Source: a virus
Virus record (IMG/VR): IMGVR_UViG_3300023278_003531
Coordinates: 35,631-99,630 of that record
Length of the DNA: 64,000 nt
Strand: one strand, 5' to 3'
The position numbers were made by a program, and so were the translations under genes. Below the pieces are notes generated by a model that was not told the origin of the DNA, did not search any database, and saw only the letters and a list, made by a program, of their open reading frames with translations. Positions 21,133 to 39,291 of this stretch are shown here, piece by piece (the stretch's first letter is position 1; the number at the start of each line of letters is the position of its first letter).

Positions 21133-21407
21133 TAAACCTCCCCCGAAACCATAGCTAGGTACTTATCGCTAAATACATACTCGCATTTCTTTGTTTTACC
21201 ATGACATTTATTACATAACGTAATTACATTACTCTCTTCCATTATACCATCCTTCAAATAATCAGATCTTTTTCTAATCTCTATTCCATATCTCTTTAGC
21301 CAAGTTCTGACTGTGGGTGCCGAACAACCTGCCTCTTTGGCAATAGCGTAAGAACTCAAACCACACTCCACGTATTTAGTGTGTAGCCAGGTTTCATCTT
21401 TATACAT
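21132..21407 (-). pseudogene. internally deleted HTH-HNH homing endonuclease remnant
   Basis: HTH (YAIAKEAGCSAPTVRTWL) joined directly to the second half of an HNH motif (SNVITLCNKCH); the H-H first half is absent. Confidence 0.6.
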
Positions 21408-21409
21408 GG

Positions 21410-23620
21410 TTATATCTTCTCCACTGGGTGATTGAATATCCTAACCTGACATTTATCTCCCACCGAGATATCTTCCAGAACAAAACTTAGAGCAACTAAC
21501 TCGTCTCCTCCCTGCACCCTAACTACATAAGACGCACCGTCGCCTCTGTCCTGAACAATTATACCTTCCTTGGTAACTTCCTCGGTCTGGAGCTGGTATG
21601 TAGAACTATTGAAACTACCCGCAGTCAAATACTTAGGACCCGTAGTCACGTTGATCAGATACTGACTAGCGTCTGCATATGAATAGTTGATCTCATTTAT
21701 GATGGAAGTATTACCATTGGAATCAGTAAATACATCTCCTAAACGCGGAGTCGAATCAGGACCAAGAACCACCGATGTGGATGTAACTACTTCATTTTGC
21801 TGCGCTAGAAAATTCTGGGCCATTTCCAAACACTCAATATCGTCAAGAAAGGGAAGTGTGATATCAATGGTACTTCCATTAGTATTGTCTTGTAAAATAG
21901 ACATCTCACTCTCATCAAAGTCCTGAGTAGTGGAGGGGTCATTGTCTCTAATACCGTCGGTCTGGTCTATAATACCAAAAGCATTTAAGGTTTTACCCCC
22001 ACCCCCTGTAGATTCATCTATACTCTGCAAAGAACTAGTAGATGCGTACGCTATGGGGGGTGGAAAATCTACCAAAACGATGGGAGTGTAGGTTATACTA
22101 ATACTGGCAGCGACACCCATCGCAGCACCTCGGGGGTCAAATATATCGATGCTGGGACGTCGTCGTTCAACAACAATACACATCTCGCCGCTAGCAACCT
22201 TATAACCAAGCGCGTCTCCAATAGAACAAATATAATCTCTAAACTGATTAGTAGATACAGTAAAGGTATTAGGTGTATCTTTAGTGGCCTCTCGGTATTC
22301 GAAACCGGCGGGTGGGGATGTGAAAGGATCATAAAATCTACAAATAGTTGATGCATACTCACTGTCTATGATACTAAATAGATCTATCTCTAGGTTTTCG
22401 TCAGCGTCTTGGGTCCATGTCCAGTTGCGACCATGCTGAAGACTTATCAATTCCTTGTGAGGATTAAGAATAGTTTTAGCAAATCCCGAGAAACCCCCTC
22501 CTCCTCCAAATTCTTGAAGCTGAAATACTTTCTGGCCAGAAAATACAATATCCGTGATCGAAAGAAAATCAGATTCCAACTGGCCAAACTTATTCAACCT
22601 CTTAAAACGATCTGCACCTATTGTGATTCGAGAACCCACTAAGGTCGTATTGGTTACAGTACATTCGCCTGTCTGCTCATTAACAGTGGTTATTGTGGCG
22701 GGAACTCCCGCTCCAAAACTACCGCCCGCGGATGCGCCCAATGCACGGCCCGCACCCAATTGCTGACTTACATCCTGAGCGCCTCTAAAGTTAGGTAAAA
22801 TTATACTACCATCTATCTTACTAACTTTAAAAAGTTCGGAATCAAAACGGATATATTCTTTCGTTGAATCTCCAAAAGATATTCTAAGACCGGGAACAGA
22901 CTCACTGTCCGCGGACACATCGAAATCTATAATGTAACCTAATAAACTCTCAAACGCGCCTATCTCATAAGAGTTAATAATGTCATCGTTGTAAGCCTGA
23001 TCCAGTGCGGGGTCATCATAGGAAATAGTTGCATATTTTGCATTATGATCCTGCTCACAGGTATCGACAGCACAGTCGTCGTAAGCCATAAATTCTTTAT
23101 TCTTAAGTCCGTCAAAGGATTCTCGGAGCTCACGCGTGATAGGAGGATCATACCCCCTAACGATAACCAAACTTGCTTCATTGGTAACCTGGCCAGTGGG
23201 AATACAATACCGGACATCTAAATTACTTGCGGTAGCAGACCCTACTATATAGAAACGGGCGATACCATCTGCGTCTATTTCTACCTCGGCAAAACCGCCC
23301 AAACCCGAGCGGCCCGATCCCTGCGGCGCGGAGTTCAAAAGCTCAGTAGATAATGCCAAACGTAACATCCCCGTAGCGTCTTGGTTACGGATGTCATATC
23401 CAGGCAGTGTCCCTCCCATCACAGGCTGGCTGAAAGGAATATTGTAGGTCTCTAATACCAATTGAGAAACAGGACGAGTGGGATCGGGATCTAATACCGA
23501 GTTTTGAGGAACAGTATTGCCGATGACCACACTTTGGTAATCCGGATTGTCATTTGGTATGATCGTATCTACCGCAGTTCCGGGATTAACTCCAAAGCCT
23601 GGGAAGTTAATAGCTGCCAT
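21410..23620 (-). CDS. tail-tip/baseplate hub (Tal-like) protein (736 aa)
   Basis: First gene after the TMP. C-terminal PRLGDVF..IINEINYSY and an OB-like GIIVQD..YVVRV...ISVGDKCQV. Confidence 0.6.
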   Translation of the reverse strand: MAAINFPGFGVNPGTAVDTIIPNDNPDYQSVVIGNTVPQNSVLDPDPTRPVSQLVLETYNIPFSQPVMGGTLPGYDIRNQDATGMLRLALSTELLNSAPQGSGRSGLGGFAEVEIDADGIARFYIVGSATASNLDVRYCIPTGQVTNEASLVIVRGYDPPITRELRESFDGLKNKEFMAYDDCAVDTCEQDHNAKYATISYDDPALDQAYNDDIINSYEIGAFESLLGYIIDFDVSADSESVPGLRISFGDSTKEYIRFDSELFKVSKIDGSIILPNFRGAQDVSQQLGAGRALGASAGGSFGAGVPATITTVNEQTGECTVTNTTLVGSRITIGADRFKRLNKFGQLESDFLSITDIVFSGQKVFQLQEFGGGGGFSGFAKTILNPHKELISLQHGRNWTWTQDADENLEIDLFSIIDSEYASTICRFYDPFTSPPAGFEYREATKDTPNTFTVSTNQFRDYICSIGDALGYKVASGEMCIVVERRRPSIDIFDPRGAAMGVAASISITYTPIVLVDFPPPIAYASTSSLQSIDESTGGGGKTLNAFGIIDQTDGIRDNDPSTTQDFDESEMSILQDNTNGSTIDITLPFLDDIECLEMAQNFLAQQNEVVTSTSVVLGPDSTPRLGDVFTDSNGNTSIINEINYSYADASQYLINVTTGPKYLTAGSFNSSTYQLQTEEVTKEGIIVQDRGDGASYVVRVQGGDELVALSFVLEDISVGDKCQVRIFNHPVEKI

Positions 23621-23635: not shown

Positions 23636-26600
23636 CTAGTTTCCTCTGCCTGCCTGTGCGAGGGAGAGAGCCTGTGATGCCTGGGTAAGTGCAGTAGATG
23701 CTCTCTGACCGATCTCGCCCAGAAGCTGTTTATCTGACTTACGTGCGGTTTCTGCTGTTGTAATCTCTGTGTTAATCTGTCGGACTTCGGCCTCAATACC
23801 TTGCTTATTGTCCCCGACGGCAGTCGAGAGGTCGGTGATCTGCTCGGCAAGGACAGAGACATTTTCAGTTGCCGCGGTGGCTACGGTTGTAGCGGTAGCT
23901 GCGGCAGATGTCGCGGATGATGATGCCTCCGTGGCAAGAGTGGCGCTCTCGCTGGCAGCCTGGGAGGTCGTAGTTGCGAGTTCTATTGTCGTACTGAACG
24001 TAGAAACCTCGAGCGTGAGAGCGTCTAGATTACTAGTCGTAAGGGTTTGTTTTGATTCCAGTGTGGATACGTCCTCCTCCAAAGCTAGAATTGATTCATT
24101 GAGTGGTCCAGAAGTATCGGTCAGCCCCTCGACCGCATCCACCCTAACACCCAAAGCGGTAATGTCAGCCCCCGCAGCTCCTGTCGCAGCCTCAGTGGCA
24201 GCTACAGCCAGTTCATCGATGTTAGAAACTGTAACTGCAGGCTCGCCATCAATGGTGACTGTGAGGGTCTCACCCAAAGCTTCGGTAATATCAGAACCTA
24301 TGGATGCGATATCGGAACTGAAGGATTCAGGAAGGGTCACGCCCTGGCTTGCCAACCCACCTATAACCTCATTGAGCGACGCTATGGAGTCATTCAGAGC
24401 ACTTAGTGCCTCCGAGGAACCCCCATCGCCCGTACCACCCCTAGTAACTCTGTCTGCTGGATCATCTCTAGTACCCGGCGCAGAGCCATCTTCCTTTCTA
24501 ATAACATTGGAGGGACTAGCAGCGTCATCACCAAACCTGGCGCTAGCATTCGCCTCAGCAGCCAGGTTATTATTCGTAAGTCCTACCATGGGATTTATTC
24601 GGCGCATGCCTGCATTTAGATTTACGGTGCCGGTTCCTGCAAGCTCTGTGCTGGAGAGAACACCACTTTCCCTGCCTCGATAAACATGCTCGCCGCTATC
24701 GATACCCTTTTGAATAATCCTCATGGCACTTATCTGCTTTTCACCGGCAGTTAGTTCGGATCCGCGATCTGCTGCCTTTAACTGACCTGTGTAAGTACTT
24801 TCGCCAGGCCTGCCACCAGCGAGCTGTGCAAATGTTCCAGCGGTTGGGGGTTTTGTGCCGAAACCGCCCTGCATAGATAATCCTAAAGTCGGTCCAGTAG
24901 ATTTGGTACCAGGACCTGCTACCATAGCCGCCAACTCTTGCTCATTCCACTTGTTTTTGATAGTCTCAGGACCTGAGGTTGCAACTCCTCCGGGCGCGGG
25001 AATCGCGGACGCGCCCATTCTTATACCGGAGGTGGGATCCGCAGCCTTGTTAGTTAGCGTCTCAAGTGCGGATAATTGTTCTCTTTGTAATCCCACAGAG
25101 GTGGTTAGGATTGCATTCGTAGGGATCATCCCAGTAGCCATATCCTCTACTCCCGCCTGGCGCGCTGCCTTCTTTGACAGGTCTTGCGCTTCTTGAGTAA
25201 TGGAACCTGCAAACTTGGAGAGACCTTCCAGAGAAGGAAGTCCCTTGAAGAAAAGTTTATCATCGCGACCCTTCTTCGTCGCCTGTTCGGAGGTTGCCAA
25301 TTCCTCACCAAGGATATCAAAATACTTCTGAGCTTTAGCCTTCAAGTCATCACTCTGTCCCGGATCAAACATTACATCTGCAAGGGTTGATCGGACACGC
25401 TCCGCTTTCTGTTGCTGACTTCGTAGAGCCGTAGTTTCTATGCTCTGCTTCTGCTGAATGACAGCTTCCTTCTCATCAAAGTCAACGTCTTTCAGTGCTT
25501 GCTTCTTGGCGCGCATATCGGCCAACGTCGTTCGTCCACCACTACCAAATTGTTTCTCTATATCTCGTCTCTTGTTTTCGAAAGAAGTTCGGAAACCAGC
25601 TTGACCCACTCGGGCCATTGGACCATCCAAATCAGAATCTATCTTATTAATGATTTGAGAATCTGCTTTTTCGAAATCCCTAACCATGTCATTTAGAGTG
25701 GTAGCGAAGTTTATAGCAGCGTCCGCCAATCTAATAGCGGGAATATCTGCCTGCAACTTATTATTGCTGTCCTCTAGGGCCTTGATAGCCTTAGCTTGAG
25801 CTTCAAGATGGGATGCCCGTACTGAGTTCTCCCACTGAATGGACTTGGCCTTCGCCGCGTCAAGATCCTTGGAAGCCTTTAGCTGCTTCGCTGCTTTGGC
25901 CTTCGACATATCTTGGGGGCTGGATGATTTAATCATCTCCGTGGTAAGACCGGAGGCGGCCTTGCCATCATTCTCGAAGACCTCCGCCATTCTGTCCGCT
26001 AGATTTGACTGTAAATCCTTCTGACTCCAGAACTGCTGGGTAGGTTGACCATCGGCGGTGTCGGACAGAGGTACGTCTATCATTCCTCTACCCTCAAACT
26101 GCTGCATACCATTCATAAGTGCTACTATATTCTTCATCTGGGGATGGGAAGGAGCGTTAGCACCCGCTCTTAAATTACCATCGGCATCTGGAATTATGTT
26201 AAGAACCTTCTTGAAGACATCGTTCATCGCGCCGCCCCCAAGTACTTCTCCAAACGCGCTGGTCTTCTCTTTAAAGGACTTCTTGGACATAACGGAGGCA
26301 AAGGCTTCGGCCCTATCACCTTCCGGCAAGGACTGGATGTAGGTAAGTTCGTGCAGGGCTTCGAGCATGGAGTTTTGGACACTCAGCTGGCGACCCCCAA
26401 TATCGGTAAAGTCGTCAGCTAATTTATTCATACCCCTAATCATCTCAAGTTGGCCTGCTGAGGTTTTCTCTCCAGAGCCAGCTAGACGCTTCTTTTGCTC
26501 GGAGGTCATGGAGTCCCCGGCTTTGGCCATGTCCGTAACTGAAGTTTCGAAGTCAGACATCTGCTTCTCTATCTTATTGAGTGTGTCCAGATCTCGATTT

Positions 26601-29600
26601 CTTTTATCTGAGGTTCCTGCAGTCCCTCGAAGAAGTTTAGCAAACTCAGGCACTGCGACAGCTAGCTTCTCCAAACCACTGAGTTCTTTAAAGGACTTGC
26701 CGAGATCTATGCTGGGGACAGCGCCCATACCCTTCATCGCGCCGCCAGAGCCTGTTATAAATTTGTTCTTGTTAGCTTCGGCCCGTTCGTAGTCGGCAGC
26801 GGCCGTAGCTGCGTCTTTTAAGGTAATGTTAAGCTTCTCTTGCATCTTCTGGTAATTACCCAGAACAGAGAGGAAGAAACCCTCCTTCTGTAGTGTCGTT
26901 GCAAGCTGCAGAACTTCCTGAGTAACTACCTTTAGTGCCTTCCCGGAAGATGCTTGTCTCTTGTAAGTACCCTCAACATCCGTAAGTAGGTCTTCTCCGT
27001 ACTCCTTGGTGAGGGCATTGAATTCGGACTGAATGTCTGCCAACCTCTGCATGTCCTCTGGAAGAGAACGCATTACTCTCTGCTCCACAGACAGTTCTTT
27101 CTCACTGGCGGGTCCCAAGTTAGGCATCCCTCCCGTAGGAATACGAACTCCCGCCATAGCACCCGAGTACTGCATGGTCATAATCTTCTTAGTGTGTGCC
27201 TCAGCGGCATCCACTTCCTTCTTGGTCCAGGTCATGAAGTGGTGTGCGACATCTGCCTTTTCCAACTCCTTGACGACACCCTCCAATTCGGTGCCCATAA
27301 CACTGGAGAGAGCCCCGGTGCTGGTTCTAAATTGCCAAATAGCCTTCTCGGTGCCTTCTTCAAGCGAGGAGAAAAGTGTCGTGACTCCTCCCGTTTTCAG
27401 GTCTGCAGCTGCTTGGGAAATAACGGCCATCTGACCCGCCTTAACTGGTGCTCCAGCACTGCCCGTTACCGCGCCTGAGCCGCTTGTAGCACCTATTCCT
27501 CTAGACAGGAATGCATTTGCTATAAGTCCAGAAGACTGAGTGTTCTGATAATCCAGAACCCCACCCAGGCCGGACTGCTTACCCATGAACTGGGTCATTA
27601 CTGAACTACCAGTTGCCCCTCGACCGAAGGCACCCGCTTCCGCGGCATCGTTAATTTGACTTTGGAGTTGTGGGGTAATACTCCCCATAGCACTTTCCAA
27701 ATCACCGAACTCAGGAATAGATTCAAAAACCCGTTTCATCTCATTGGCGGTGGCCAGAACTGCCTCGCGCTCAGCGCCTTCCTGCGCCACCAATTCATTC
27801 ATTCTGGACTGGTTAACAAGGCTGTACTCACCAGACTTAGCCTGTTCGTTCATTATCTTCGAAAGTTTTTGAATTTCCTTTCTTGTGTCACGAAGCTTAC
27901 CCATACCGCTTTGATCTTCGTTCGCGCCAGCCATGCCTCCAGTTGCGAAATTTGCAAACTTAGCGAAGCCCTGCTTCATGTTATCCAGTATTCCCTCCGC
28001 AGTGGTTAGCTCCTCTGCGAATTTAGATATAACATCTACCTTGAAGGCAGTGGTTATAGCGTTCTGGGCATCTAATGCTGATACAGTAAGGGATTTGAAA
28101 TTAGAATCTATTCCCAGAATGTAGTCGCCAGAATCTGAAATACCCTGGACCTTGGTAGGGTCTAGTGAAGCCATGCTATTACCTATGTCAGCCATCATGT
28201 TGTTGTACGTCTGGGCCGCGGTGGCGGCTCCCTTGAAGCGACCTTCACCTAATGCTGTACTCATAGCGGCATCGTCCGCCATGGCTTCCTGAGCTTTCCC
28301 TACCTTAATAAAGGACAAAGCTAAACGATCAGCATTAACAGATTGGCTTCTTAGAGTCGACGCGGCGTCCTCGCTCCTCCCCATAACCTCCTCTACGGAC
28401 TGCTCGTAATCTTTGGCTGATTGGGAGGCTTTCTGGTATGCCATATATGCACCGCCAAGAGCGGCGACAACGGTCAGGATCGCGGCGGCGCCGACTGAGG
28501 TAACCATTGCGGCGCTGAAACCTTTCTGAGCGACGGTAGCGCCTAAGAATCCCTTTTCAGCCAACTTTGTTACAAGCGACGTTCCGAGAAGACTATTCCC
28601 CAAACCATCAACTGCTCTTCTGGTGAGATGGGCAGTACTAGCGAATTTAGTCATCTCCTCAGTGCGGCCAGTCCCAGCACCTGCGGCGTCCCAGCCAGTC
28701 TTAGCGCTTGATTTGATTCCCGAGAGCAACTTAAAGGTACTGCTTCTACCCCCGCCAGTAGTACTCACCTCGTTACCTGAGAAAACATCCATAGTATCTG
28801 CGATCAGGTCAGCAGCCTTGTGGAAAGCCAATCCCATCGCAACAGCACCCATGGTGCTCTTCATAATCATGGGGTGTAGATCACCGACGAGTCCAACTAG
28901 TTTGGAGACACTCTGAATTGCACCAGTTGCCAATCCGAGACCGGTCTTACCAAACTCTAGTACAAGACCCTTAACACTTTCCTTGAGAACCGTAACATTC
29001 TTGGTGAATGTTTGCATCGCCAATCGGTTCTTTCTCATAGCAAAGCCCTGCGAGTTAGCAGCGTCAGCGCTAGCAAGCAAGGCTTCGTCGAAGTTATTCA
29101 TCAAGACGATGAATGAGTTATAGTGTCTAATACCCGCCATTGCTTGAGCTAGATTGACTTGCTGTGCGCGAGTCATTCCGTCCCAAGAACCGGCTAATTC
29201 CTTGAGTATGCCCATAGCGGGTTTGAAATCACCGCCCACCTCCATACTACCAACGCCCATCTTGCCAAGTTCCTTCTGCGCAGTAGGCCGTCTCATCGCG
29301 CGGAACATGAACTTGGTGCTGGTTGCAACTTCCTTACCAGATTGTCGAGTTACAGCACCAATTGCAGTAACCACTCCCATGAAGTCTTCAAAACCCACAC
29401 CCGCCACTTGGGCGGCAGCACCGGAACGCTTAACCGCGTCTGCTAGATCCTTAGCTGTAATAGCGTGCCTGGCTGCAACAGCTGCCCAGGCATCAACAAA
29501 CTCAGCCGACCCTGACACAGAGTCCCCGAAAACTTTATGAGCTGCTGTGAGAGCTTCCGTAGCTTCTACGGAAGTCAGAGTGGTAACATTAACAGCGAGC

Positions 29601-32600
29601 ATGGTAGCGCGTGTGCGCTCCATGATCTTATTCATCTTCAAACCCTGCTGACCATAGACAACCATACCGTCTAATACATCTTCAATGCCAATTCCAAACT
29701 CGGATGCAAAATCAGATGCGGAATCCTGCATACGTTCGAAGTTGGTAACCGAGGTGTCCATCACCTTCTTCAACGCAGTGACCTTAGTCTCAACTTCGGT
29801 AATAACAGTGACCATTTGTCGAAAAGCTCTGATAGTACCATAAACGATACCGGTAGCAAATCCCCACTGAACCACTCTTCTCAGAGAGTTTCTCATATGT
29901 CCAGTAAATTCTTTAGCGGCACTACCTGCGTTAGTAAGAGACACTACGTACTCATCACCGAACCTACGAGCAGACATTGTCAGTTTTTCAAGAACCGTGT
30001 TGCTCTCCTGATCTACAATCGGAAAGGACCCCTCTTTGGAAATTCTATTACCACCAATAGGCTTGAATCCCTGCTTGTGCATGGCGGTTAGCTGCTTTCC
30101 CCACTGCTCAGCTTGCGCTTCAATGTCTCTTCTCTGCTTATCATAAGACGCCTTCAGATCCATCCCGCCTGTTGCAGCAGCTTGAATGGGGCGGGAATCA
30201 GCAGCAGCGCGTGCGTGCTCTTCCGTAGTTCTGGGAACGGTACCTAACTTCTCATATGCTTTGTGTGCCTTATTTGCCATGTCGGCCATTGCTTTGAGAA
30301 TGTTTACTTGTTCGGAGTCGGGGCCACTGATTGTACCCATGAGAGATGACATTGCTTTTAGAATCGAGGAAACCTTACCTAAGTTCTCTACAAGTGTCTC
30401 GGGGGACTGAGCAAGTTCATCCCAAATCTGAGTCCAAACCTTGGTCTTACTAATGCCAGCCTCAATCTGATCCTTGGCGCTCATCAAGGTTTCACCCAGG
30501 CCTCCAAATTTTTCTTTGCTCTCACCACGACCCGCACTCTGCTTGATGATATCAGACCATGCAGATTTTCCAGGCTGAATTCGTAATTCGTCCGCGGCGG
30601 TGGGGAGCATTGCGCCAGAACGGCCCATAGCAATACCTGTCTGTTTGAATGTACCAGGTAGTTTAGTCTGCCCTAAAACCGCATACATTTGCTGAATAGT
30701 GTTGTTGAAGTGCTCTAGTAGCTCGGCGAATTCGGGGGTATCTGCCGCTCCTGAATCCCGAACCTGCTTTATCATCTCTTGAAGACCCTTACCTTTGTTG
30801 ATATACATCTGAAGCTCGGCAGCTTGGAATTCCTGCATCGCCGAGAGATACGCCTCGTTTCCCCGACGACCACCACCACCTGCATCTTCGCCGACATCCT
30901 TCAATCCTTTCTTATATCCGAAAGCGGTTTCCTGGTAAATCTTCTTCATGTCTGCCATTCGGGCAGGATCTACCCCACCCTCCTGTCCCATCTCACTGAG
31001 CATCAATCGCATAGACTCGGCGGGGACTTCCATTCCCGAAATGTTCTCGCCGGGGAATGAGATAGGACCCGCAGTGCGGGTACGTCCACCTTTTCGCTCA
31101 CCGGCGACCAGCTTGAGATTATTACGTGCCTCCTTCAATGCCTGGTCAAATAATATCAACTCATCACTGAGCTTCCTATTGAGTTCTGCTCCGGGGTATC
31201 CTCCGGCAGAACGTATTTTATCCTGCGCCTCACCCCGGACCGTCTGTCCGTGGGTTTTAGTCACAGATGCTATCATACCGCCAGCCTGTTTAAGAATATT
31301 TCCAGAAATACCACCAACCGCCTCATCTAATTCAGAAAACATCTTCATTAGAGCTTTTTGTACTTCGTCGGGGATGTCTCCGAAGATCTCCATCCACTTG
31401 GATGGGTTAGTAAGATGGGCTAGCAGCTCTTCAGCGACCATCTCGAAGTATTTCGTACCCTGTGCCTGTATGGCTTCATCCGCAGTTTTACCTGCAAACT
31501 CTTTCAAATTACCTATACCAGAAACCTCAGCACCGCCACCACTCTCCCTTCGGATCTTACTCAACAGCTTTAATTTATCAGCGTTACGCCCTACCATTGT
31601 TAGTTGATTTGCCGCCTTTAGTATTAACGGCGCCGCCTGGCCTATAGCGGTACCACCATCGACGAGGGAGGCAGATATCTCATTGATACCAGATCTAACA
31701 GTCTTAGCACTCTTATGTATATTCTCATGAGCCAGTGTAGCACCCATATTGGATATAGCTTGGGTAACGAACTCTATACCTTTAGCAGTGGTCGGAATTT
31801 CCCCAGCGTCTATACGCCCAAGCATCTTCAGAGCCATTTCCAGAGGCTTCATTCGGGAGGTTGCGCCGACGCTGATCTTTCCCTCGCCGGGGGCAGTTCC
31901 TGGTTTCTCACGATAAACACCCGCAACCTTCTTAGGATCTAAACCACTAGCAATAAAAAGCTCGTCGCTAACTACACCGTACATTTGCTTGATATTAGCA
32001 ATCCATGCAGAAAGTTTATCTACTATCTCTTTACCCACAGCAATAGGTTTACCCGGATCTTCTTCCAGATCCACCCCACCCTTCAGCGCCTGGGCGGTGT
32101 CGCTAAACAGCGTGTTGAGAATCTTAGAAGCGCGATCCTCCAGAGGCAGCCCCTCCATCTCTCGGGTGCCCTTCCTTCTAGACAATGCATAGGATTCAGG
32201 AATAATCTCACGAGGATCTAATCCCTCTATCTTGCCTTGATTCTGGGCAGTTTTGGTAGTTCTTTGTCTGACGTACTCTGCAGCCGATGACGGGCTAGCG
32301 CCTTTATCTATCATGGCCTGGCGGGCATTCTCCTCCAGCATTTCCTGCATGCGTTTGAGCTGACCTCTAAGATCCATCTTATCCAACAACTGCTGAATGA
32401 CCTTCTCGTAATTACCCTTGTCTAATCCTTGACCCTCTTTGAGAACTCCCTCCTCAAGAGCCGTCTGTGTAAGTGCGGCTGGATCCTGAGACCTAAGCAT
32501 GGGCTCCATCTCGGCAAACATTTGCTTATTATAACGTCCCATTTTACCAAAAGTATCACCACCCCCAGCATCCATTCCTGCTATGATCCTAGCCATTCCG

Positions 32601-35600
32601 GAGGGTCCGGATGACAATGACTTTACAAGATCTTGTGGTCCCGCCATGTTGCCCGAACCGCTCTTAGCAGCTAAAGACTCATTAATGTTCATCATAATGT
32701 AATCGGAAGCTGTTGCAAATGCGTCTCCCGACATCTTAGCACCACCTACAACTGCGTTATAGAAAATGTTGAACACGTCCGAAAGAAGTCCTACAGAAAG
32801 CTTACCGCCGGTAAGTGCCAAGGTCTGCTCTCTTTCCGTTTCTGCGCTATCAGGCATGGCCACTGCGGCTTTATATGCATCCGGGCGCTTGGCGATTGCG
32901 CCGAATGCCTCGTTAGCGCCTTCCAAGCTAGAATAATCTTGATCTGCAGTTTCTATACTACCTATAATATTACGCATAGCGGACTGCATGGAGAAACCGG
33001 TCTGTAAATAAATCTCCTTAGCTGTCTTCATGGCGTGTGCTGACTCTATCGTCATTGCCCCAAACAGCTTAGTGGCGTCACCGTCGAAGTCTAGGTTCAT
33101 GGTTGCCGAATGAAAAGCATTAGTAAATTCATAAATAGCGCGGTTGGCTATTCCAAGATTCTTCCTAGCTTTGTCTGCGGCAGGACCCAGTCCGTTATTG
33201 GCTTTTATAACCTTCATAGAAGATGCCCGTAGGTCCTCAAAAGGTTTTTTTACCTTCTGAGCATCTTCGGTAGAGGACATTGCGAAGGTACCCGGAACAC
33301 CCATCTTACCTTCAGGTAGTCGCCCCGTCTTATCCTCCATTATTTTAACAATCTGCTGGCTCGCGCCTCCTGTAACAGGATCGCGAAGATGCATACCTCT
33401 TTCCATAACCTTGTCAAGATCCTTCCCGCTTAGCTTCTGTCCCATAGCCTTAGCTTGTTTCTTAGCCAGAGACCGCATCGTTGCGTAGTCTTTCTTGCTG
33501 AGAAGAATACCGTCTCGGGGGAGGACGTCCTTAGTCACCTGGAGAGACTTCATTCTATCCAGAGCCTCAAGCGCATCACTCGTATCCGCACCTGCCTTTC
33601 CTAAAGCCTTAAGATGTCTTTCCGCTCTCTTTATCTCGGAAGACATATCTACTGCATACTCAATAGCTTTAGAGTACTGCGCGTTGGCGAGACCCGAGCC
33701 ACGAGTCTGTGCTACCTTTCGAGACTCTTCAAATGCAGGAGTTCCTGAGGTTCTACCGAATCCCTGAGAGGTGACCTCTTGTAGGAGCTGTCCTTTTACC
33801 TGATCCTGTCTTTCCCATTGTTTTTCCGTAAAAGCAGGGTCTTCGGCAGAAGCTGTGCCTACACGCTTAAGTGCGGCTTCTACAAGATCTAAACTCTTAA
33901 ACAAACCACCTGTGCTTGCTATTGATCCGGTTTTTTTATTCTCCGCCCTGAAACCAAGCACGTCGCGCATTCTATTAATCTGTGCAACATCTCCCTTACC
34001 CCCACCCACATAATCTTCAGCGGACTGTCGATTAGTTTCTATCCTACCACCACGTCCAAAGTATTGTATACCAGATTTCATCCCAAGACCTTTCATAGCC
34101 TTAACGAGAGGCATAAAAGTGTTCTTGAACTCCTTAACCATAGACTTGCCTTCGTCTGTATCCGGTCCCGCTTTCTTAATATCAGATATCTGCTGGTTCA
34201 TTCTCTTAGTGAGGAATTCTGCAGATTCCCTATGCGCAGCCTCACTGTCTCTGGGAGTCAATTCTCCCCGGCCGCCTTTAATGTTCATGCTCTGCTGTCT
34301 AAGTTTTTCCAAAAGCCTGGTCAGTTTACTGGGATCCGCCAAACCTTCTTCGGTAGTACGCACATCCCGCTGGCCTACAGCCTTTCCCATTCCGGGGATA
34401 AAGAGCTCCTCTTGCCCTCCCCCTTTTTTAGGAAGCATCATACTAAAAGCCTGCTTCTGAAACTCAGGATCTGCTAGAGTACCTTTCATCATATCAGGTT
34501 CGGCGAATCCTCCCGGCATTGGTGAAAAATCTTCAGGTTTCATCTTCTTCAGGTTAGAAACGACGCTGGCACCAGCGCCGCTCATACTAAGAAGCATCTT
34601 GCGATAATCATCCTGCGCGGAGATTACATGTTTACTACTTTTGTTCTGGGCTGCCATTGCAAAGGATAGGGTTTCCGCTCTCTGCTCAAGAGCTTTCATT
34701 GCCACGGGGTCTATGAATCTATCACGCTCGATTGACTCTCCGGTCTGACCTTCCTTCTCGATTCGATTCCACGCTAACCTACCTGTAAGTACCTTACCGA
34801 TTCCACCCGCAGCCAGAGCACCTGAAGTTTTCTCGAATGCTGATTCGGGGTCAAGTCCTAACTCCTTACCCACCGCGCGGGCGGCGGGTGCCATCTCCAA
34901 CCCGGGAGTTGCTTTCATAGCACCGGTTATCTTATCAAATATTGTTTGCGCAGCTACCTTACCTCCAGAAGCCATGCTGGTAGAAATCATTGCGATGATG
35001 TCTTGTAGGTCAGCACGTCTAATGAAACCTTCTGCGCTGGTAATTACGTCAGTGTCTTTACCTGCGCCGAACTTTGCCATAGACTCGTCAGATACAACCT
35101 TAGCAATACTTTTACTTCCTGCAAAAGTTGAGAACTTAGAACCGGTAGTCGCTGCATTGAATTCATCGAAGACGATCTCGAACATCTTCCTACCATTTCT
35201 AAAGACCTGCTTTAATTCCTTGATCTCCGCATAAGACCCCTTAAGGTTAAACTCAATGTCTTTACCCGCAGCATCTATGCCTAATTTCTGACCCTTCTGT
35301 AATCCCATTCCTACGACTAGGTCTTCCGAAAGATTTGAAACCGTTTCTTTATCTTCCTTGTACATACCCGCACGTTTAGCTGCGGAAGCTCTCATCAAGA
35401 TCTGATCTTCGTGAAGCTCCGGTATGTGTTTTTGAGACACTGCTGCAGTTTTAAAATTCAATGACGACGCAGAAATCTGACCCTGCTTCAATAGCTGCTT
35501 CATTAGAGGGGACACAATGTCAGGCATCTCACCGCCTTCCACCTTAGCAAATCCCTTCATAAAGTTAGTACGCATCTGCTTACTAAACCCAGCACCACCT

Positions 35601-37300
35601 GCCAAGAGTTCGGCTACGGGCCTGGTCTGGACTTTACCTTGGACAGCCCCTCCCTCCGACAGACCACCAAGAGACTTAGCCATGTCAGCTGCGGCCTCCT
35701 CGGTGAGTCCAATCATGGAAACCACGTCGGCACCTGCGGCAACAAACTTACCGGAAGCGCGTGTCATGTCGTGGAGAATAGCAGCTATCTCACCGAGCTT
35801 ACCAGCATCGGTGTCATGTTTCATTATCTTCTCGGTCTGTTTCTTGGAGGGGGTCCATTGAAGTTGGGACTCTCCCCCCTTTATAAACTGACCCATAGAT
35901 TGATGTTTCTCATATCTAGACGCATCCCCGCCAATTCTCTTTCTAATCATCGAACGCGTCATCTGAACAGCAGTTTCTTGGGACCTGCCTGCTCTTCTGG
36001 CAATTACTTTAAGTTCACCCTCAACACCCTCCAGGGCGTGAGTAATACTATCAAGCCTTGTTACGTTGTTTCCCTGAATCTTAAGAACACTACCTATTAT
36101 CTTCTCTGAACCCGCACCTGTCTTAATGGTAGGGACGGAACCAGGAGCCACGCGTACATCCCCAGGAGAGGGCAACCCCAGAGCAGCCTGAAGATTTTTA
36201 CCTTTGAAACTAGGTAAAGCTGTTTCTATATCCTTACCTAAACGAACAAGAGCTTTGGATACCGTCTTAGCAGTCTGTTCTGCCTGTGCTTGGTAGTCAA
36301 CTCGACCCTGCGTCCCACGGGGAGGTGAAGTTCTAGCCTCCTCCCTCTTAACGGTAGCCTGCTTAGTTCCCCTGCTGTCTATTTTAGGAACACCAGTAAC
36401 AGACCGGGTCTGGGGAGTAACCAAACTACTATCTCTCCGGCCTCCCGTTTCACTACGAGTAGTTCTATCTCTTTGGATATTTCTGTTGGTGGCGCCCGCA
36501 GCGGGTTGGTTTTTGATAGTCTGTCTGGGGTCTCTCTGCGCTTTTCCAGCTCCAGAACCAACAATGCCGCCAGTCAGCGCGGCTCCCTGCTTATTTATCT
36601 TAGAGATAAATCGGGATCGCGCTGCGGCGGCAGTTCTTTCAGCGGCGGTCGAAGCTTCAATCGCCTTTATATTATCTAAAGTAGCTTTTCTTTTGCGCTC
36701 CTCCAGTCTTACATTCTGCTCCAGGATACGACTAACTTTAGCCTGGGCACGTTGTAATTTCCTGGAAGTCTCAGTAGATTTATCACCTGCTTTTATTTCA
36801 CGCGCAAGAGACTGGGCCCTCTTCTCAGCGGCTACGGCTGCTTTCTCGATACGCGCAACCCGTCCTGCTAAACCTGATTCTATTTTACCTAGAGTCTTGT
36901 CACTCTTAGAAGAGGACGCCTGTGCGGCAGTTCCAGCGCGCGATGGTGTAGATTTTACAGGTGTGGAAACTTGTGTCTTAGACTGGCGCTGCGACTTATT
37001 AAGTGCAGCAGTTAGAGAAGATAAAGCAGATGTCATTTCTTTGGTAGACGCTTCAAAGCTCTTGAATTCAGACCTAAGTACTTTACGTACATCCTTGGCA
37101 AAGTCTGCGCCCTTGACGCCTGTAGCCCCAGCTGCAGCTTTAACTGATCCAGAACTAGGACCGATAGCTCCAAGATTAACACCTTTAAGTGCGTTCTGGG
37201 TAGCGGACTTAACGGCTTTCTTTATTTGACCTTCTAGACCTTTGATACTAGTCTGATCAAGTTCTAGATCTATACCAATCTTAAACTTTTCTTCTACCAA
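23636..37300 (-). CDS. tail tape-measure protein fused to a two-barrel virion RNA polymerase and a zincin-like module (4554 aa)
   Basis: TTG start with GGAGG; position after tube and chaperones; TP901-type TMP core at aa ~2470-2780; RNAP motifs at aa ~610-1550; HExxH at aa 1858. Confidence 0.92.
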   Translation of the reverse strand: MVEEKFKIGIDLELDQTSIKGLEGQIKKAVKSATQNALKGVNLGAIGPSSGSVKAAAGATGVKGADFAKDVRKVLRSEFKSFEASTKEMTSALSSLTAALNKSQRQSKTQVSTPVKSTPSRAGTAAQASSSKSDKTLGKIESGLAGRVARIEKAAVAAEKRAQSLAREIKAGDKSTETSRKLQRAQAKVSRILEQNVRLEERKRKATLDNIKAIEASTAAERTAAAARSRFISKINKQGAALTGGIVGSGAGKAQRDPRQTIKNQPAAGATNRNIQRDRTTRSETGGRRDSSLVTPQTRSVTGVPKIDSRGTKQATVKREEARTSPPRGTQGRVDYQAQAEQTAKTVSKALVRLGKDIETALPSFKGKNLQAALGLPSPGDVRVAPGSVPTIKTGAGSEKIIGSVLKIQGNNVTRLDSITHALEGVEGELKVIARRAGRSQETAVQMTRSMIRKRIGGDASRYEKHQSMGQFIKGGESQLQWTPSKKQTEKIMKHDTDAGKLGEIAAILHDMTRASGKFVAAGADVVSMIGLTEEAAADMAKSLGGLSEGGAVQGKVQTRPVAELLAGGAGFSKQMRTNFMKGFAKVEGGEMPDIVSPLMKQLLKQGQISASSLNFKTAAVSQKHIPELHEDQILMRASAAKRAGMYKEDKETVSNLSEDLVVGMGLQKGQKLGIDAAGKDIEFNLKGSYAEIKELKQVFRNGRKMFEIVFDEFNAATTGSKFSTFAGSKSIAKVVSDESMAKFGAGKDTDVITSAEGFIRRADLQDIIAMISTSMASGGKVAAQTIFDKITGAMKATPGLEMAPAARAVGKELGLDPESAFEKTSGALAAGGIGKVLTGRLAWNRIEKEGQTGESIERDRFIDPVAMKALEQRAETLSFAMAAQNKSSKHVISAQDDYRKMLLSMSGAGASVVSNLKKMKPEDFSPMPGGFAEPDMMKGTLADPEFQKQAFSMMLPKKGGGQEELFIPGMGKAVGQRDVRTTEEGLADPSKLTRLLEKLRQQSMNIKGGRGELTPRDSEAAHRESAEFLTKRMNQQISDIKKAGPDTDEGKSMVKEFKNTFMPLVKAMKGLGMKSGIQYFGRGGRIETNRQSAEDYVGGGKGDVAQINRMRDVLGFRAENKKTGSIASTGGLFKSLDLVEAALKRVGTASAEDPAFTEKQWERQDQVKGQLLQEVTSQGFGRTSGTPAFEESRKVAQTRGSGLANAQYSKAIEYAVDMSSEIKRAERHLKALGKAGADTSDALEALDRMKSLQVTKDVLPRDGILLSKKDYATMRSLAKKQAKAMGQKLSGKDLDKVMERGMHLRDPVTGGASQQIVKIMEDKTGRLPEGKMGVPGTFAMSSTEDAQKVKKPFEDLRASSMKVIKANNGLGPAADKARKNLGIANRAIYEFTNAFHSATMNLDFDGDATKLFGAMTIESAHAMKTAKEIYLQTGFSMQSAMRNIIGSIETADQDYSSLEGANEAFGAIAKRPDAYKAAVAMPDSAETEREQTLALTGGKLSVGLLSDVFNIFYNAVVGGAKMSGDAFATASDYIMMNINESLAAKSGSGNMAGPQDLVKSLSSGPSGMARIIAGMDAGGGDTFGKMGRYNKQMFAEMEPMLRSQDPAALTQTALEEGVLKEGQGLDKGNYEKVIQQLLDKMDLRGQLKRMQEMLEENARQAMIDKGASPSSAAEYVRQRTTKTAQNQGKIEGLDPREIIPESYALSRRKGTREMEGLPLEDRASKILNTLFSDTAQALKGGVDLEEDPGKPIAVGKEIVDKLSAWIANIKQMYGVVSDELFIASGLDPKKVAGVYREKPGTAPGEGKISVGATSRMKPLEMALKMLGRIDAGEIPTTAKGIEFVTQAISNMGATLAHENIHKSAKTVRSGINEISASLVDGGTAIGQAAPLILKAANQLTMVGRNADKLKLLSKIRRESGGGAEVSGIGNLKEFAGKTADEAIQAQGTKYFEMVAEELLAHLTNPSKWMEIFGDIPDEVQKALMKMFSELDEAVGGISGNILKQAGGMIASVTKTHGQTVRGEAQDKIRSAGGYPGAELNRKLSDELILFDQALKEARNNLKLVAGERKGGRTRTAGPISFPGENISGMEVPAESMRLMLSEMGQEGGVDPARMADMKKIYQETAFGYKKGLKDVGEDAGGGGRRGNEAYLSAMQEFQAAELQMYINKGKGLQEMIKQVRDSGAADTPEFAELLEHFNNTIQQMYAVLGQTKLPGTFKQTGIAMGRSGAMLPTAADELRIQPGKSAWSDIIKQSAGRGESKEKFGGLGETLMSAKDQIEAGISKTKVWTQIWDELAQSPETLVENLGKVSSILKAMSSLMGTISGPDSEQVNILKAMADMANKAHKAYEKLGTVPRTTEEHARAAADSRPIQAAATGGMDLKASYDKQRRDIEAQAEQWGKQLTAMHKQGFKPIGGNRISKEGSFPIVDQESNTVLEKLTMSARRFGDEYVVSLTNAGSAAKEFTGHMRNSLRRVVQWGFATGIVYGTIRAFRQMVTVITEVETKVTALKKVMDTSVTNFERMQDSASDFASEFGIGIEDVLDGMVVYGQQGLKMNKIMERTRATMLAVNVTTLTSVEATEALTAAHKVFGDSVSGSAEFVDAWAAVAARHAITAKDLADAVKRSGAAAQVAGVGFEDFMGVVTAIGAVTRQSGKEVATSTKFMFRAMRRPTAQKELGKMGVGSMEVGGDFKPAMGILKELAGSWDGMTRAQQVNLAQAMAGIRHYNSFIVLMNNFDEALLASADAANSQGFAMRKNRLAMQTFTKNVTVLKESVKGLVLEFGKTGLGLATGAIQSVSKLVGLVGDLHPMIMKSTMGAVAMGLAFHKAADLIADTMDVFSGNEVSTTGGGRSSTFKLLSGIKSSAKTGWDAAGAGTGRTEEMTKFASTAHLTRRAVDGLGNSLLGTSLVTKLAEKGFLGATVAQKGFSAAMVTSVGAAAILTVVAALGGAYMAYQKASQSAKDYEQSVEEVMGRSEDAASTLRSQSVNADRLALSFIKVGKAQEAMADDAAMSTALGEGRFKGAATAAQTYNNMMADIGNSMASLDPTKVQGISDSGDYILGIDSNFKSLTVSALDAQNAITTAFKVDVISKFAEELTTAEGILDNMKQGFAKFANFATGGMAGANEDQSGMGKLRDTRKEIQKLSKIMNEQAKSGEYSLVNQSRMNELVAQEGAEREAVLATANEMKRVFESIPEFGDLESAMGSITPQLQSQINDAAEAGAFGRGATGSSVMTQFMGKQSGLGGVLDYQNTQSSGLIANAFLSRGIGATSGSGAVTGSAGAPVKAGQMAVISQAAADLKTGGVTTLFSSLEEGTEKAIWQFRTSTGALSSVMGTELEGVVKELEKADVAHHFMTWTKKEVDAAEAHTKKIMTMQYSGAMAGVRIPTGGMPNLGPASEKELSVEQRVMRSLPEDMQRLADIQSEFNALTKEYGEDLLTDVEGTYKRQASSGKALKVVTQEVLQLATTLQKEGFFLSVLGNYQKMQEKLNITLKDAATAAADYERAEANKNKFITGSGGAMKGMGAVPSIDLGKSFKELSGLEKLAVAVPEFAKLLRGTAGTSDKRNRDLDTLNKIEKQMSDFETSVTDMAKAGDSMTSEQKKRLAGSGEKTSAGQLEMIRGMNKLADDFTDIGGRQLSVQNSMLEALHELTYIQSLPEGDRAEAFASVMSKKSFKEKTSAFGEVLGGGAMNDVFKKVLNIIPDADGNLRAGANAPSHPQMKNIVALMNGMQQFEGRGMIDVPLSDTADGQPTQQFWSQKDLQSNLADRMAEVFENDGKAASGLTTEMIKSSSPQDMSKAKAAKQLKASKDLDAAKAKSIQWENSVRASHLEAQAKAIKALEDSNNKLQADIPAIRLADAAINFATTLNDMVRDFEKADSQIINKIDSDLDGPMARVGQAGFRTSFENKRRDIEKQFGSGGRTTLADMRAKKQALKDVDFDEKEAVIQQKQSIETTALRSQQQKAERVRSTLADVMFDPGQSDDLKAKAQKYFDILGEELATSEQATKKGRDDKLFFKGLPSLEGLSKFAGSITQEAQDLSKKAARQAGVEDMATGMIPTNAILTTSVGLQREQLSALETLTNKAADPTSGIRMGASAIPAPGGVATSGPETIKNKWNEQELAAMVAGPGTKSTGPTLGLSMQGGFGTKPPTAGTFAQLAGGRPGESTYTGQLKAADRGSELTAGEKQISAMRIIQKGIDSGEHVYRGRESGVLSSTELAGTGTVNLNAGMRRINPMVGLTNNNLAAEANASARFGDDAASPSNVIRKEDGSAPGTRDDPADRVTRGGTGDGGSSEALSALNDSIASLNEVIGGLASQGVTLPESFSSDIASIGSDITEALGETLTVTIDGEPAVTVSNIDELAVAATEAATGAAGADITALGVRVDAVEGLTDTSGPLNESILALEEDVSTLESKQTLTTSNLDALTLEVSTFSTTIELATTTSQAASESATLATEASSSATSAAATATTVATAATENVSVLAEQITDLSTAVGDNKQGIEAEVRQINTEITTAETARKSDKQLLGEIGQRASTALTQASQALSLAQAGRGN
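28950..29890 (-). other. tape-measure core domain (PhageMin_Tail/TP901-like) within the TMP
   Basis: VQWGFATGIVYGTIRAF..VTALKKV..ASEFGIG..ATEALTA..ITAKDLADAVKRSGAAAQVAGVGFEDFMGVVTAIGAVTRQSGKEVATSTK. Confidence 0.9.
32600..35500 (-). other. single-chain double-psi-beta-barrel RNA polymerase core within the TMP
   Basis: HEDQILM (E631-D632), GSKFSTFAGSKS (K722, K730), DVITSAEGFIRRAD (D751, R762), LRDP (R1306), EGKMGV, NLDFDGD (aa 1402-1408; 33077..33097), in the same order as the bacterial beta then beta-prime motifs. Confidence 0.88.
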
Positions 37301-37327: not shown

Positions 37328-38416
37328 TCATCTAGAGCCGCCCCTCATGGCAGACTTAGACTTAGCCCTTGAGCGTCTGTTCCTAGAACGACGACTATTA
37401 GGGTTAATAACTTCCACCTCTGAGGTTCCTTCAGCGATCTTTAGTCTTTCTTCACTATACGCTAATTTCATATACTCAGGATGGGATGGTGTGATAATCA
37501 ACTCCTCGCCTCTCTCCCATGCGTTTAACTTACCGCCCTTATTGCCTCCTCGACCTGCTGCCTTTCCTTCTGTCTTTTCCTGTTCTCTATTCTTAAAGTA
37601 ATCACCCATGTACTCATCAAGCTTCTCGTCATCTTCTATTATTTCTTGAGAAGGCTGATCGTCTGGGAGCATCTCATAAATGGACTGGTAATAATTACTC
37701 CAATATAAGAGAGACATTTGATCGGGGGTCAGGTCCAACAATCCATCTTGGAATAACTGCTGACCCATCTTAGTAGCTGCAGTGTATCTTATACGCCACA
37801 GACTATGACGCGCTAAAAAGCGAATGGATTTGGAGGGCAACCCCACGTTAAATTTAGTAAAGTTTTCAAAAAGAGAAGCTCTCAAATCATGTCGAGTCTC
37901 GTCTTCAAATTCCTTAAAAGTATCCCAAAAACGTTCTCCAGTTACTGCGTAAGTGGAAGCCCAGGTCAAGAATATAAAAGACTCCTCGTCCGCCTTCCTC
38001 TCCTGCGAAAGATAAAGAATATTATGAACCTTATTCTGAAGCGGCGCTGCTTGATCTTGGAGGCGCTCTATGTTTTCCTGGATCTGATCTTTACGGGCAT
38101 CAATTGATGTCATCTCCAGAACAGACGTCTGGGCCTCGATCTTCTCCTGTATCTCTTTCAGCGTATCCTTATCTTCTTGAGTAGTTACCTTTTCAGACAA
38201 CCCCTCTGCTTCTTCGAGAGTGGGAAGACCTTCCTCCTGCGCTGTGAGCAAAGCCTTGTCTCTCATATAGCGACTGAGAAGTAAATCTTGCGCTTTAGGA
38301 AAACAAAATATTATAAATTCTACTCCTCCAATGTAGTCTAGACGGGTAAGACGTTTGTTGGAAATTATAGAATCAAGCAAAGCCTCTATTTCCTGAAAAG
38401 GAAGCTCCTCAATCAT
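37328..38416 (-). CDS. tail assembly chaperone 2 (GT-like)
   Basis: Immediately before the TMP; C-terminal half LWRIRY..LTPDQMSLLYWSNYYQSIYE; N-terminal half is paralogous to 38419..39291. Confidence 0.7.
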   Translation of the reverse strand: MIEELPFQEIEALLDSIISNKRLTRLDYIGGVEFIIFCFPKAQDLLLSRYMRDKALLTAQEEGLPTLEEAEGLSEKVTTQEDKDTLKEIQEKIEAQTSVLEMTSIDARKDQIQENIERLQDQAAPLQNKVHNILYLSQERKADEESFIFLTWASTYAVTGERFWDTFKEFEDETRHDLRASLFENFTKFNVGLPSKSIRFLARHSLWRIRYTAATKMGQQLFQDGLLDLTPDQMSLLYWSNYYQSIYEMLPDDQPSQEIIEDDEKLDEYMGDYFKNREQEKTEGKAAGRGGNKGGKLNAWERGEELIITPSHPEYMKLAYSEERLKIAEGTSEVEVINPNSRRSRNRRSRAKSKSAMRGGSR

Positions 38417-38418
38417 TA

Positions 38419-39291
38419 TTAAGCCTTGGGAGTTTCCTCAGGAGCGGGCTCTTCCTTCTTCTTTCGAGGACGTCCTCGCTTCTTAGGTGCCGGCTTCACA
38501 GCAGCGGCTTTCTTCTTAGGAGCTTTCTTCTTCTTTGGTTTCGCATCTACTGCGTCCAAAGATAGCTCCTCAGAAGTATCTTCCTCCACGTCAGCGTCAG
38601 CATCAGGATTTTCCTCTTCTGCTTCTGCTCTTGCAGTGTCAATGGCACGGGTTAGTCTATCCTGTGCTATGTCTCTAAGAGCAGACTGCTCAGGGGTATT
38701 CTCTAGGAAATTACTTTCTAATCCCTGAATCCAAAGCATGACTTCGAATCTGGACTTTACGGAAAGTGCGGAGTTCTCTTCATTCTGGTAAGAATCAAAG
38801 TCTTCCCAAAGAACAGAACCATCCTTCTCCTGGACAATACGGGATGTTAGATACTCGTTACGGGCGTCGTCTGCCAGATTCTCACAGGTGTTTCCCATAG
38901 GACCATTCACCTGCTGGTTAAGAGAAAACAACTCGTCGCGCAATCTAGCTATCTCAAGTGCTAGTCCCTCACGTTCTAGTTCGGGGGCGGTATCACTAAC
39001 GTTTTCTAGTTTAAATAGTTCGGAAGCTAGTCCGATCCTGGTACTCTCCACCTTCATCGCGTAGTCCTCGGAAAGAATACCCTTCTCTCTTAGAACATCC
39101 ACCATCTGTGCTTGGGTAAGAAACCCATCTACGATGGCTTGGTTATAAATCTTAGAGTATTGCCAGTCTGCCTTTCGAACATCAGCAGCGCTTGGCTGTG
39201 CGATGAAGAAAGAAACATCTTCACCCTCCACGGGTGCGGTAAATTCACGTCTAGAATCCAGAACGTCTTTAACGTTTTTGGCAGTTGCCAT
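38419..39291 (-). CDS. tail assembly chaperone 1 (G-like) with Lys-rich AT-hook tail
   Basis: Lies between tube and TMP; FFIAQPSAAD..; acidic then basic tail KPKKKKAPKKK..KKRGRPRKK. Confidence 0.7.
   Translation of the reverse strand: MATAKNVKDVLDSRREFTAPVEGEDVSFFIAQPSAADVRKADWQYSKIYNQAIVDGFLTQAQMVDVLREKGILSEDYAMKVESTRIGLASELFKLENVSDTAPELEREGLALEIARLRDELFSLNQQVNGPMGNTCENLADDARNEYLTSRIVQEKDGSVLWEDFDSYQNEENSALSVKSRFEVMLWIQGLESNFLENTPEQSALRDIAQDRLTRAIDTARAEAEEENPDADADVEEDTSEELSLDAVDAKPKKKKAPKKKAAAVKPAPKKRGRPRKKKEEPAPEETPKA

Follow-up and report, generated by a model that had tools for sequence, protein, structure and literature searches.

The window analysed here is a stretch of 64,000 nucleotides (positions 35,631 to 99,630) of the IMG/VR virus record IMGVR_UViG_3300023278_003531, which is 297,725 bp long and rated complete by CheckV. 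A divergent zincin-like metallopeptidase (MPTase) domain appears to be embedded in a giant protein encoded on its minus strand, between an RNA polymerase (RNAP)-like region and a tape-measure core. Along its 4,554 amino acids (aa), this protein comprises the RNAP-like front, a module with an HExxH motif (HENIH), the tape-measure core, and a long C-terminal part. The module probably holds a zincin-type metal site; on balance, aa ~1750-1985 are taken to form an active peptidase, and within that reading the release of the polymerase from the tape by self-cleavage is proposed tentatively as its function. Zinc binding, catalysis, substrate, and timing are inferred from the motif, its invariance, the predicted order of structural elements, and the position of the module. 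The principal features of the gene are (window coordinates):

23636..37300, minus strand: whole gene, 4,554 aa, TTG start (open reading frame [ORF] list and translation)
33077..33091, minus strand: DFDGD, aa 1404-1408, inside the invariant NLDFDGD (aa 1402-1408), 454 aa upstream of HExxH
31346..32053, minus strand: predicted zincin-like (MPTase-type) domain, aa ~1750-1985 (~235 residues; AlphaFold2 model and alignments A1 and A3)
31715..31729, minus strand: HENIH, aa 1858-1862, with the putative Zn ligands H1858 and H1862 and the putative general base E1859
28382..29989, minus strand: tape-measure core, aa 2438-2973 (Pfam PF10145 and PHROG 4211)

HENIH is the single HExxH in the 4,554 aa, where only 0.017 occurrences would be expected from composition because histidine makes up 0.7% of the residues. 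With aa 1730-2060 as the query, HMMER was used to search 1.84 billion representative proteins independently of the HExxH motif, and gave 10 relatives (E 2.5e-56 to 4.8e-5; identity 20-38%). HExxH stands at the aligned position in all 10, and a glutamate further downstream is likewise kept; in the query this is E1958 (encoded at 31427-31429, minus strand), the putative third Zn ligand. One more locus was found in IMG/VR with a pattern derived from alignment A3 (L028; IMGVR_UViG_3300022719_000329; 295,848 bp); it encodes the same four residues in one open frame, with DFDGD 460 residues upstream of HExxH, and is no unbiased test of conservation because the scan pattern contains HExxH. Together, H1858, E1859, H1862, and E1958 are invariant in 12/12 sequences (the query, the 10 relatives, and the IMG/VR locus), and they account for four of the only six invariant columns of alignment A1. 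This invariance stands out because the module is otherwise among the less conserved parts of the protein, with an identity to the query of 0.19-0.36 per 50-residue window vs. 0.6-0.85 in the tape-measure core. E1859 is not a ligand, and its invariance points to catalysis rather than to a purely structural metal site.

Other positions of the module are kept to differing degrees. The spacing between the second histidine and the glutamate varies from 60 to 168 aa among homologues, and the distance from DFDGD to HExxH is 437-470 aa in every homologue with enough upstream sequence. Two glycines (G1794 and G1807) of a predicted GVYRE/GKISVG hairpin are nearly invariant, as is P1966, just after the helix that carries E1958. 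An earlier sequence-only reading of the window had proposed a self-processing zincin here; its residue numbers and coordinates for HENIH and E1958 are exact, and the conservation of HExxH in homologues, which it had named as a check, extends to every sequence and includes the downstream glutamate. It had offered both glutamates of MVAEELLAH, E1957 and E1958, as candidates for the third ligand: E1958 is invariant, and the predicted helix to which it belongs (aa 1940-1962) ends C-terminally with the MVAEELLAH segment; the E1957 position is not conserved (E, N, or T among homologues).

The assignment of the flanking parts is based on motifs and profile matches. In searches of the whole protein against Pfam and PHROGs, the tape-measure core was the sole match (PF10145, E 5.4e-25, aa 2525-2723; PHROG 4211, E 2.9e-79, aa 2438-2973). 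On the N-terminal side, eight homologues invariably have NLDFDGD and an R-x-P-x-T-G-G-x-S block (aa 1306-1314). DFDGD is the metal-binding motif of two-barrel RNA polymerases, and here it lies N-terminal to the tape-measure core within one polypeptide, the arrangement of the tape-fused virion RNAP of Thermus phage P23-45. A PDB profile search with alignment A2, which covers the polymerase-like part, matched nothing. The giant homologues (3,841-5,285 aa) have the same motif order as the 4,554-aa protein. In P23-45, the virion RNA polymerase forms the N-terminal part of gp96, a tape-measure protein of 5,002 aa (Chaban et al., 2024; PMC10770324); the polymerase activity of gp96 resides in aa 1-1200 and the crystallised core spans aa 327-1124 (PMC10770324), with DFDGD at 779. 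Scaled from the position of DFDGD, with gp96 as the yardstick, the polymerase core of the present protein is expected to reach to about aa 1750, the point at which the HExxH domain starts. The module is located directly downstream of the RNAP-like part, the placement seen for virion-RNAP-linked MPTases, and the sequence-only reading had correctly set it between the RNAP-like region (NLDFDGD) and what Pfam and PHROGs identify as the tape-measure core.

The fold of the module was predicted with AlphaFold2 (AF2) from an 11-sequence alignment, both as a long model (aa 1730-2060; predicted local distance difference test [pLDDT] 80) and as a short model (aa 1750-1982; pLDDT 90, predicted template modelling score [pTM] 0.84). 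From the N- to the C-terminal side, the predicted elements and the segments that flank them are:

32045..32113, minus strand: upstream linker, aa 1730-1752 (pLDDT <50, identity 0.22)
31987..32047, minus strand: N-terminal helix, aa ~1752-1771 (1752-1773 by DSSP on the AF2 model)
31865..31921, minus strand: beta-hairpin GVYRE...GKISVG, aa 1794-1812, strands 2 and 3 of a three-stranded sheet (AF2 and alignment)
31709..31786, minus strand: predicted helix of the active site, aa 1839-1864; HENIH lies close to its C-terminal end (AF2)
31484..31708, minus strand: variable helical insert, aa 1865-1939, between the HExxH and Glu helices (alignment and AF2)
31415..31483, minus strand: Glu helix, aa 1940-1962, with the invariant E1958 (AF2 and alignment)
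31178..31231, minus strand: downstream segment, aa 2024-2041 (pLDDT <50, identity 0.20)

The three predicted strands are at aa 1774-1777, 1794-1798 (GVYRE), and 1807-1812 (GKISVG). As far as sequence and secondary structure go, the module has the elements of a zincin: HExxH on a helix, a later helix with glutamate, and a helix and three-stranded sheet before them. In the MPTases of phage polyvalent proteins, HExxH sits on the first C-terminal helix and the glutamate on the second, separated by variable inserts (PMC5512222); the element order predicted for the module matches that of these domains. The beta-rich stretch with a GxY motif that the sequence-only reading had pointed out does exist, with GVYRE and GKISVG as AF2 strands, and lies upstream of the interval it had given for the module (31427-31729), which covers only part of the wider domain (31346-32053). 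Its zincin interpretation is upheld by structure prediction as far as the gluzincin/MPTase order of elements, and not by any significant sequence or fold match.

Following the Glu helix, a helical stretch (aa 1965-2060; window ~31120-31405; NPSKWMEIFGDIPDEVQ...) gave a borderline match to the middle/C-terminal repeats of FliG in the PDB profile search with alignment A1 (4fhr and 1lkv; E 1e-4). It lies downstream of the domain and may merely reflect a common helical repeat.

Several results weigh against the assignment of the module to the zincins. No peptidase or zincin was matched significantly, by sequence or by fold, in the Pfam, PDB profile, or fold searches, and no peptidase was among the PDB profile matches of alignment A1. 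Foldseek found no zincin above noise in the PDB (both models), the AFDB clusters, or BFVD, the top rows being helical bundles; VIA-align of both models against 48,161 PDB chains likewise gave helical bundles only as its best hits (Z 6.3-8.6). Unusually, the AF2 model also places an additional helix (aa 1813-1831) after strand 3, ahead of the HExxH helix. Where zincins do appear as structural neighbours, their TM-scores are low (0.13-0.54 overall), and the enrichment of zincin names may partly reflect the motif itself, because Foldseek scoring includes residue identity.

These weak neighbours, mostly zincins, come from several collections. Pfam Tox-MPTase2 falls on the HExxH helix in 5/10 members, below the cut-off (E 0.04-0.19). 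In ESM-Atlas shape searches (TM 0.27-0.54 for both models), M48, M78, DA1-like, ATLF/M90, U49, and DUF885 were among the neighbours of the long model, and ATLF/M90, M78/U49, Zincin_1, and M10/M57 among those of the short model. Among 30 rows of Swiss-Prot models there were six HtpX, four ATP23, and one SprT-like GCNA, all at E >0.8, and the weak neighbours in BFVD carry peptidase, IrrE, and SprT-like names. An ESM-Atlas feature search with aa 1750-1975 returned unnamed viral clusters and tape-measure families, with recognition under a useful level. The commonest names, HtpX/M48 and ATP23/M76, belong to minimal gluzincins, proteases in which HExxH is followed, after inserted helices, by a distant Glu ligand some tens of residues further on; they differ from the module in that the matches are at E >0.8 and TM 0.13-0.32, and in being membrane-embedded or mitochondrial proteases without phage context.

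In each interpretable case among the relatives, the DFDGD region precedes the embedded module and the tape core follows it. Its occurrence as a free-standing gene was considered and rejected, as the apparent cases are a gap, a short contig, or a frame-changed contig. One such relative (P0003) lacks its front through a scaffold run of Ns, and the preceding frame reads NLDFDGD; another (P0009) is located on a 1,035-bp contig; and a third (P0008) is on a contig of 2,990 bp, colinear with the giants and showing three frame changes with seamless homology. The closest relative of P0008, in the 296-kb contig L028, is one open frame. The P0008 contig (JGI Ga0452210_485919) has four ORFs, one of which is exactly the HExxH module, its ATG 4 bases past the preceding stop; the split frames are read as an assembly error, and a truly split form is also conceivable. 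L028 is itself a jumbo-size viral contig of nearly the same length as the record under study, and a possible comparison genome.

Other searches for relatives recovered little. No locus was found by an IMG/VR pattern scan using aa 1350-2100, and 50,697 phage records searched by tblastn with aa 1700-2100 yielded no match. A word-indexed protein search with aa 1700-2100 among proteins of 2,504-7,970 aa recovered the query alone, and one with alignment A3 among proteins of 106-532 aa recovered only the fragment P0009. In P0003, a helix-hairpin-helix (HHH) unit (Pfam HHH_5, E 4.2e-9; aa ~455-540) lies between the HExxH helix and the Glu helix. As judged from this insert, the sequence suggests that the module acts beside DNA; its presence in one homologue favours cytoplasmic action near DNA over action on the cell wall.

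For the mechanism, we propose a zinc ion bound by H1858 and H1862 from one helix and by E1958 from a later one, with E1859 as the general base; the opposite side of the substrate cleft would be formed by the three-stranded sheet, including the GVYRE/GKISVG hairpin. The tail protein would be ejected into the host before the DNA. As long as the tape is kept in the tail, the domain would be inactive; it would fold after ejection, near the entering DNA, and would then cut the polyprotein in the poorly conserved linkers that flank it, so that the polymerase is freed from ~2,500 residues of tape. Self-processing is suggested by the position of the module between polymerase and tape, by the flexible linkers on its flanks, and by the invariant general base. 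It also agrees with the proposal that MPTases release the domains of polyvalent proteins after injection (PMC5512222). Evidence from other phages speaks against self-cleavage: the virion RNAP (vRNAP) of coliphage N4 is packaged unprocessed together with its MPTase (PMC5512222), the fused polymerase of P23-45 is held by its authors to stay on the tape pore (PMC10770324), and gp96 of that phage functions without any HExxH. A more speculative extension, to which we give less credence than to self-cleavage as such, is a DNA-triggered release switch in which a single cut frees the two-barrel RNAP, the MPTases of N4-like and crAss-like phages doing the same job; in one lineage, the domain would carry its own HHH DNA clamp.

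Among the alternatives, self-release ranks ahead of a host-directed protease, which is followed by a non-proteolytic role in docking or packaging and then by wall digestion. The evidence for catalytic residues would apply equally to an active zinc protease that is delivered with the polymerase and cuts host proteins, such as transcription factors or defence proteins, at the onset of infection. Host targets are listed as a possible role of polyvalent-protein MPTases, and N4 vRNAP retains its MPTase yet is packaged uncut (PMC5512222); the weak Pfam neighbour Tox-MPTase2 is, moreover, a toxin-type metallopeptidase. However, no target is known for any virion-RNAP-linked MPTase, the sequence indicates no substrate, and a domain tethered in a trimeric tape would have limited reach; this role is considered unlikely. 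Slightly less likely still is an HExxH...E metal site that serves a structural or regulatory purpose without proteolysis, docking on the polymerase or aiding packaging into the particle. In N4, a region that includes the MPTase is required for encapsidation, and the protein is packaged unprocessed (PMC5512222); cryo-electron microscopy of N4 shows the C-terminal domain packing against the polymerase (PMC13434306), and the lack of a significant peptidase-family match for the module fits such a role as well. What stands in its way is E1859, invariant in 12/12 sequences at 20-38% identity while the remainder of the domain is free to vary, since a purely structural site would not need a general base.

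Two further explanations are harder to reconcile with the data. Tape-measure proteins often carry muralytic motifs, and a cell-wall peptidase that helps the tape through peptidoglycan could be envisaged; peptidoglycan digestion is one option proposed for the zincin-like domain of gp65 of the crAss-like phage phi14:2 (bioRxiv 10.1101/2020.03.07.982082). In the present case, the Pfam scans did not match the muralytic families M23 and M15, and the HHH DNA-binding insert of one homologue fits the cytoplasm and not the periplasm. In lambda gpH and T5 pb2, it is the C-terminal end of the tape-measure protein that exits the tail first; the module, ~2,600 residues from that end, would therefore arrive late, and wall digestion is regarded as improbable. 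Finally, the protein is long and helical, so HExxH might be a chance motif in a tape-measure spacer. This is already contradicted by the conservation data and is thought very improbable: against the 0.017 occurrences expected from composition, H, E, H, and a distant E are invariant in 12/12 sequences while the surrounding identity is ~30%, and AF2 confidently predicts a mixed alpha/beta fold rather than a coiled spacer. Of these readings, self-release of the polymerase remains the one we prefer.

The genes around the giant gene (window 37328-39291 and 20227-23620) are syntenic in three other contigs (L020, L021, and L022). These neighbours encode proteins of ~290 aa and ~360 aa upstream of the giant gene and of ~735 aa and ~300 aa downstream. 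None of 10 neighbouring genes in the window had a match in PHROGs.

With the present protein, an HExxH domain directly behind an injected RNAP is now found in three unrelated kinds of phage: the N4-like podoviruses (T7-type RNAP), the crAss-like phages (two-barrel RNAP), and the present jumbo-phage lineage (tape-fused RNAP). In all three, the roles given to the RNAP-adjacent HExxH domain are proposals. The tape case sharpens the question of whether an RNAP tied to ~2,500 residues works tethered, as proposed for P23-45, or is cut loose, and the answer would bear on how zincin domains, which are abundant in phage polyvalent proteins, work generally. If the release switch is true, a polymerase plus a release protease would be a general module of injected transcription machines.

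For coliphage N4, the MPTase of the vRNAP gp50 has been placed at aa 2130-2448 (Iyer, Burroughs, Anand, de Souza, and Aravind, 2017, J Bacteriol; PMC5512222), and the C1 subdomain, an HExxH domain directly after the polymerase, at aa 2124-2375 (PMC13434306; PDB 9PNR). Its HELVH is at 2228, downstream of the RNAP (aa 998-2103). This domain was unified with the zincins by HHpred and gave P 4e-4 against 4dv8; N4-like polymerases are always fused to MPTase domains (PMC5512222). The N4 MPTase and the present module are alike in having an HExxH helix, a later Glu helix, and a variable insert, with a helix and three-stranded sheet before them; both are situated immediately C-terminal to a virion RNAP, within a giant protein of the virion that enters the host by ejection. 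They also share local motifs, namely xTLxHExxH, and E-x-x-A-aromatic followed by (T/S)-N. They differ in the distance from strand to HExxH, which is ~12 aa in N4 vs. ~48 aa, with the extra helix, in the present module. Furthermore, N4 has a T7-like single-subunit polymerase in a short-tailed phage with no tape measure, whereas here the motif is that of a two-barrel enzyme (DFDGD) in a tape-measure protein.

In Cellulophaga crAss-like phage phi14:2, the gene for gp65 ("RNA polymerase associated protein") lies directly after that of the RNAP gp66 (order g066, g065). The gp65 protein contains a zincin-like domain and is fused to the RNAP in some crAss-like phages, and the proposed roles of that domain are activation of the RNAP by cleavage or digestion of the wall/peptidoglycan (bioRxiv 10.1101/2020.03.07.982082); the sequence-only reading was right that such domains accompany the virion RNAP of these phages. 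The order is that of the present protein, with an HExxH domain after a two-barrel virion RNAP. In gp65, the motif HEIMH is followed ~55 aa later by a Glu helix that ends in S-N-P, which resembles the E-E-L-L-A-H-L-T-N-P of the present module. In contrast to the module, gp65 is a separate protein of 1,421 aa, in a podovirus-like particle. No significant similarity between gp65 and the module was detected: tblastn against the phage collection found nothing, and hhalign was weak.

Profile comparisons give the same picture. With hhalign, alignment A3 matched the N4-like alignment at a probability of 7%, over the motif only. Against the merged N4-like and crAss-like alignment, it was colinear over the strand, HExxH, and the Glu helix (probability 3.6%, P 0.012). 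P-values across the N4-like and crAss-like comparisons were 0.005-0.012, which is not significant, and hhalign against the single sequences of N4 C1 and P23-45 gp96 was uninformative. On these sequence comparisons, the present module is not demonstrably a member of the N4-like/crAss-like MPTase family. The N4-like and gp65-type domains can, separately, be compared with each other. The HExxH region of phi14:2 g065 matches the vRNAP of Acinetobacter phage Presley in tblastn (E 2e-5, 36% over 73 aa), and gp65-type and N4-like domains align across the strand, HExxH, and the Glu helix. Because of this match and alignment, the RNAP-linked MPTases of Crassvirales and Schitoviridae look homologous, although their polymerase types differ.

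The only characterised tape-fused RNAP is that of P23-45 gp96, which, like the present protein, is delivered from the virion with a DFDGD-type polymerase on the N-terminal side of a giant tape-measure protein. In a BLASTP comparison of gp96 with the eight giant homologues, no match was found at E 0.01, and no similarity to the present protein was detected. The GenBank note on gp96 says "contains metalopeptidase domain", though HExxH is absent, and presumably refers to another peptidase type. There is no HExxH anywhere in gp96; compared with it, the MPTase module is an extra part particular to the present lineage. The sequence-only reading had called the three-part order of RNAP, zincin, and tape-measure protein distinctive; it is so in comparison with gp96, whereas the pairing of RNAP and MPTase was already known. 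Because gp96 lacks HExxH and that pairing is familiar, RNAP-MPTase-tape is best described as a new variant of a known theme, in which the novelty is an MPTase inserted in a tape-measure-fused polymerase.

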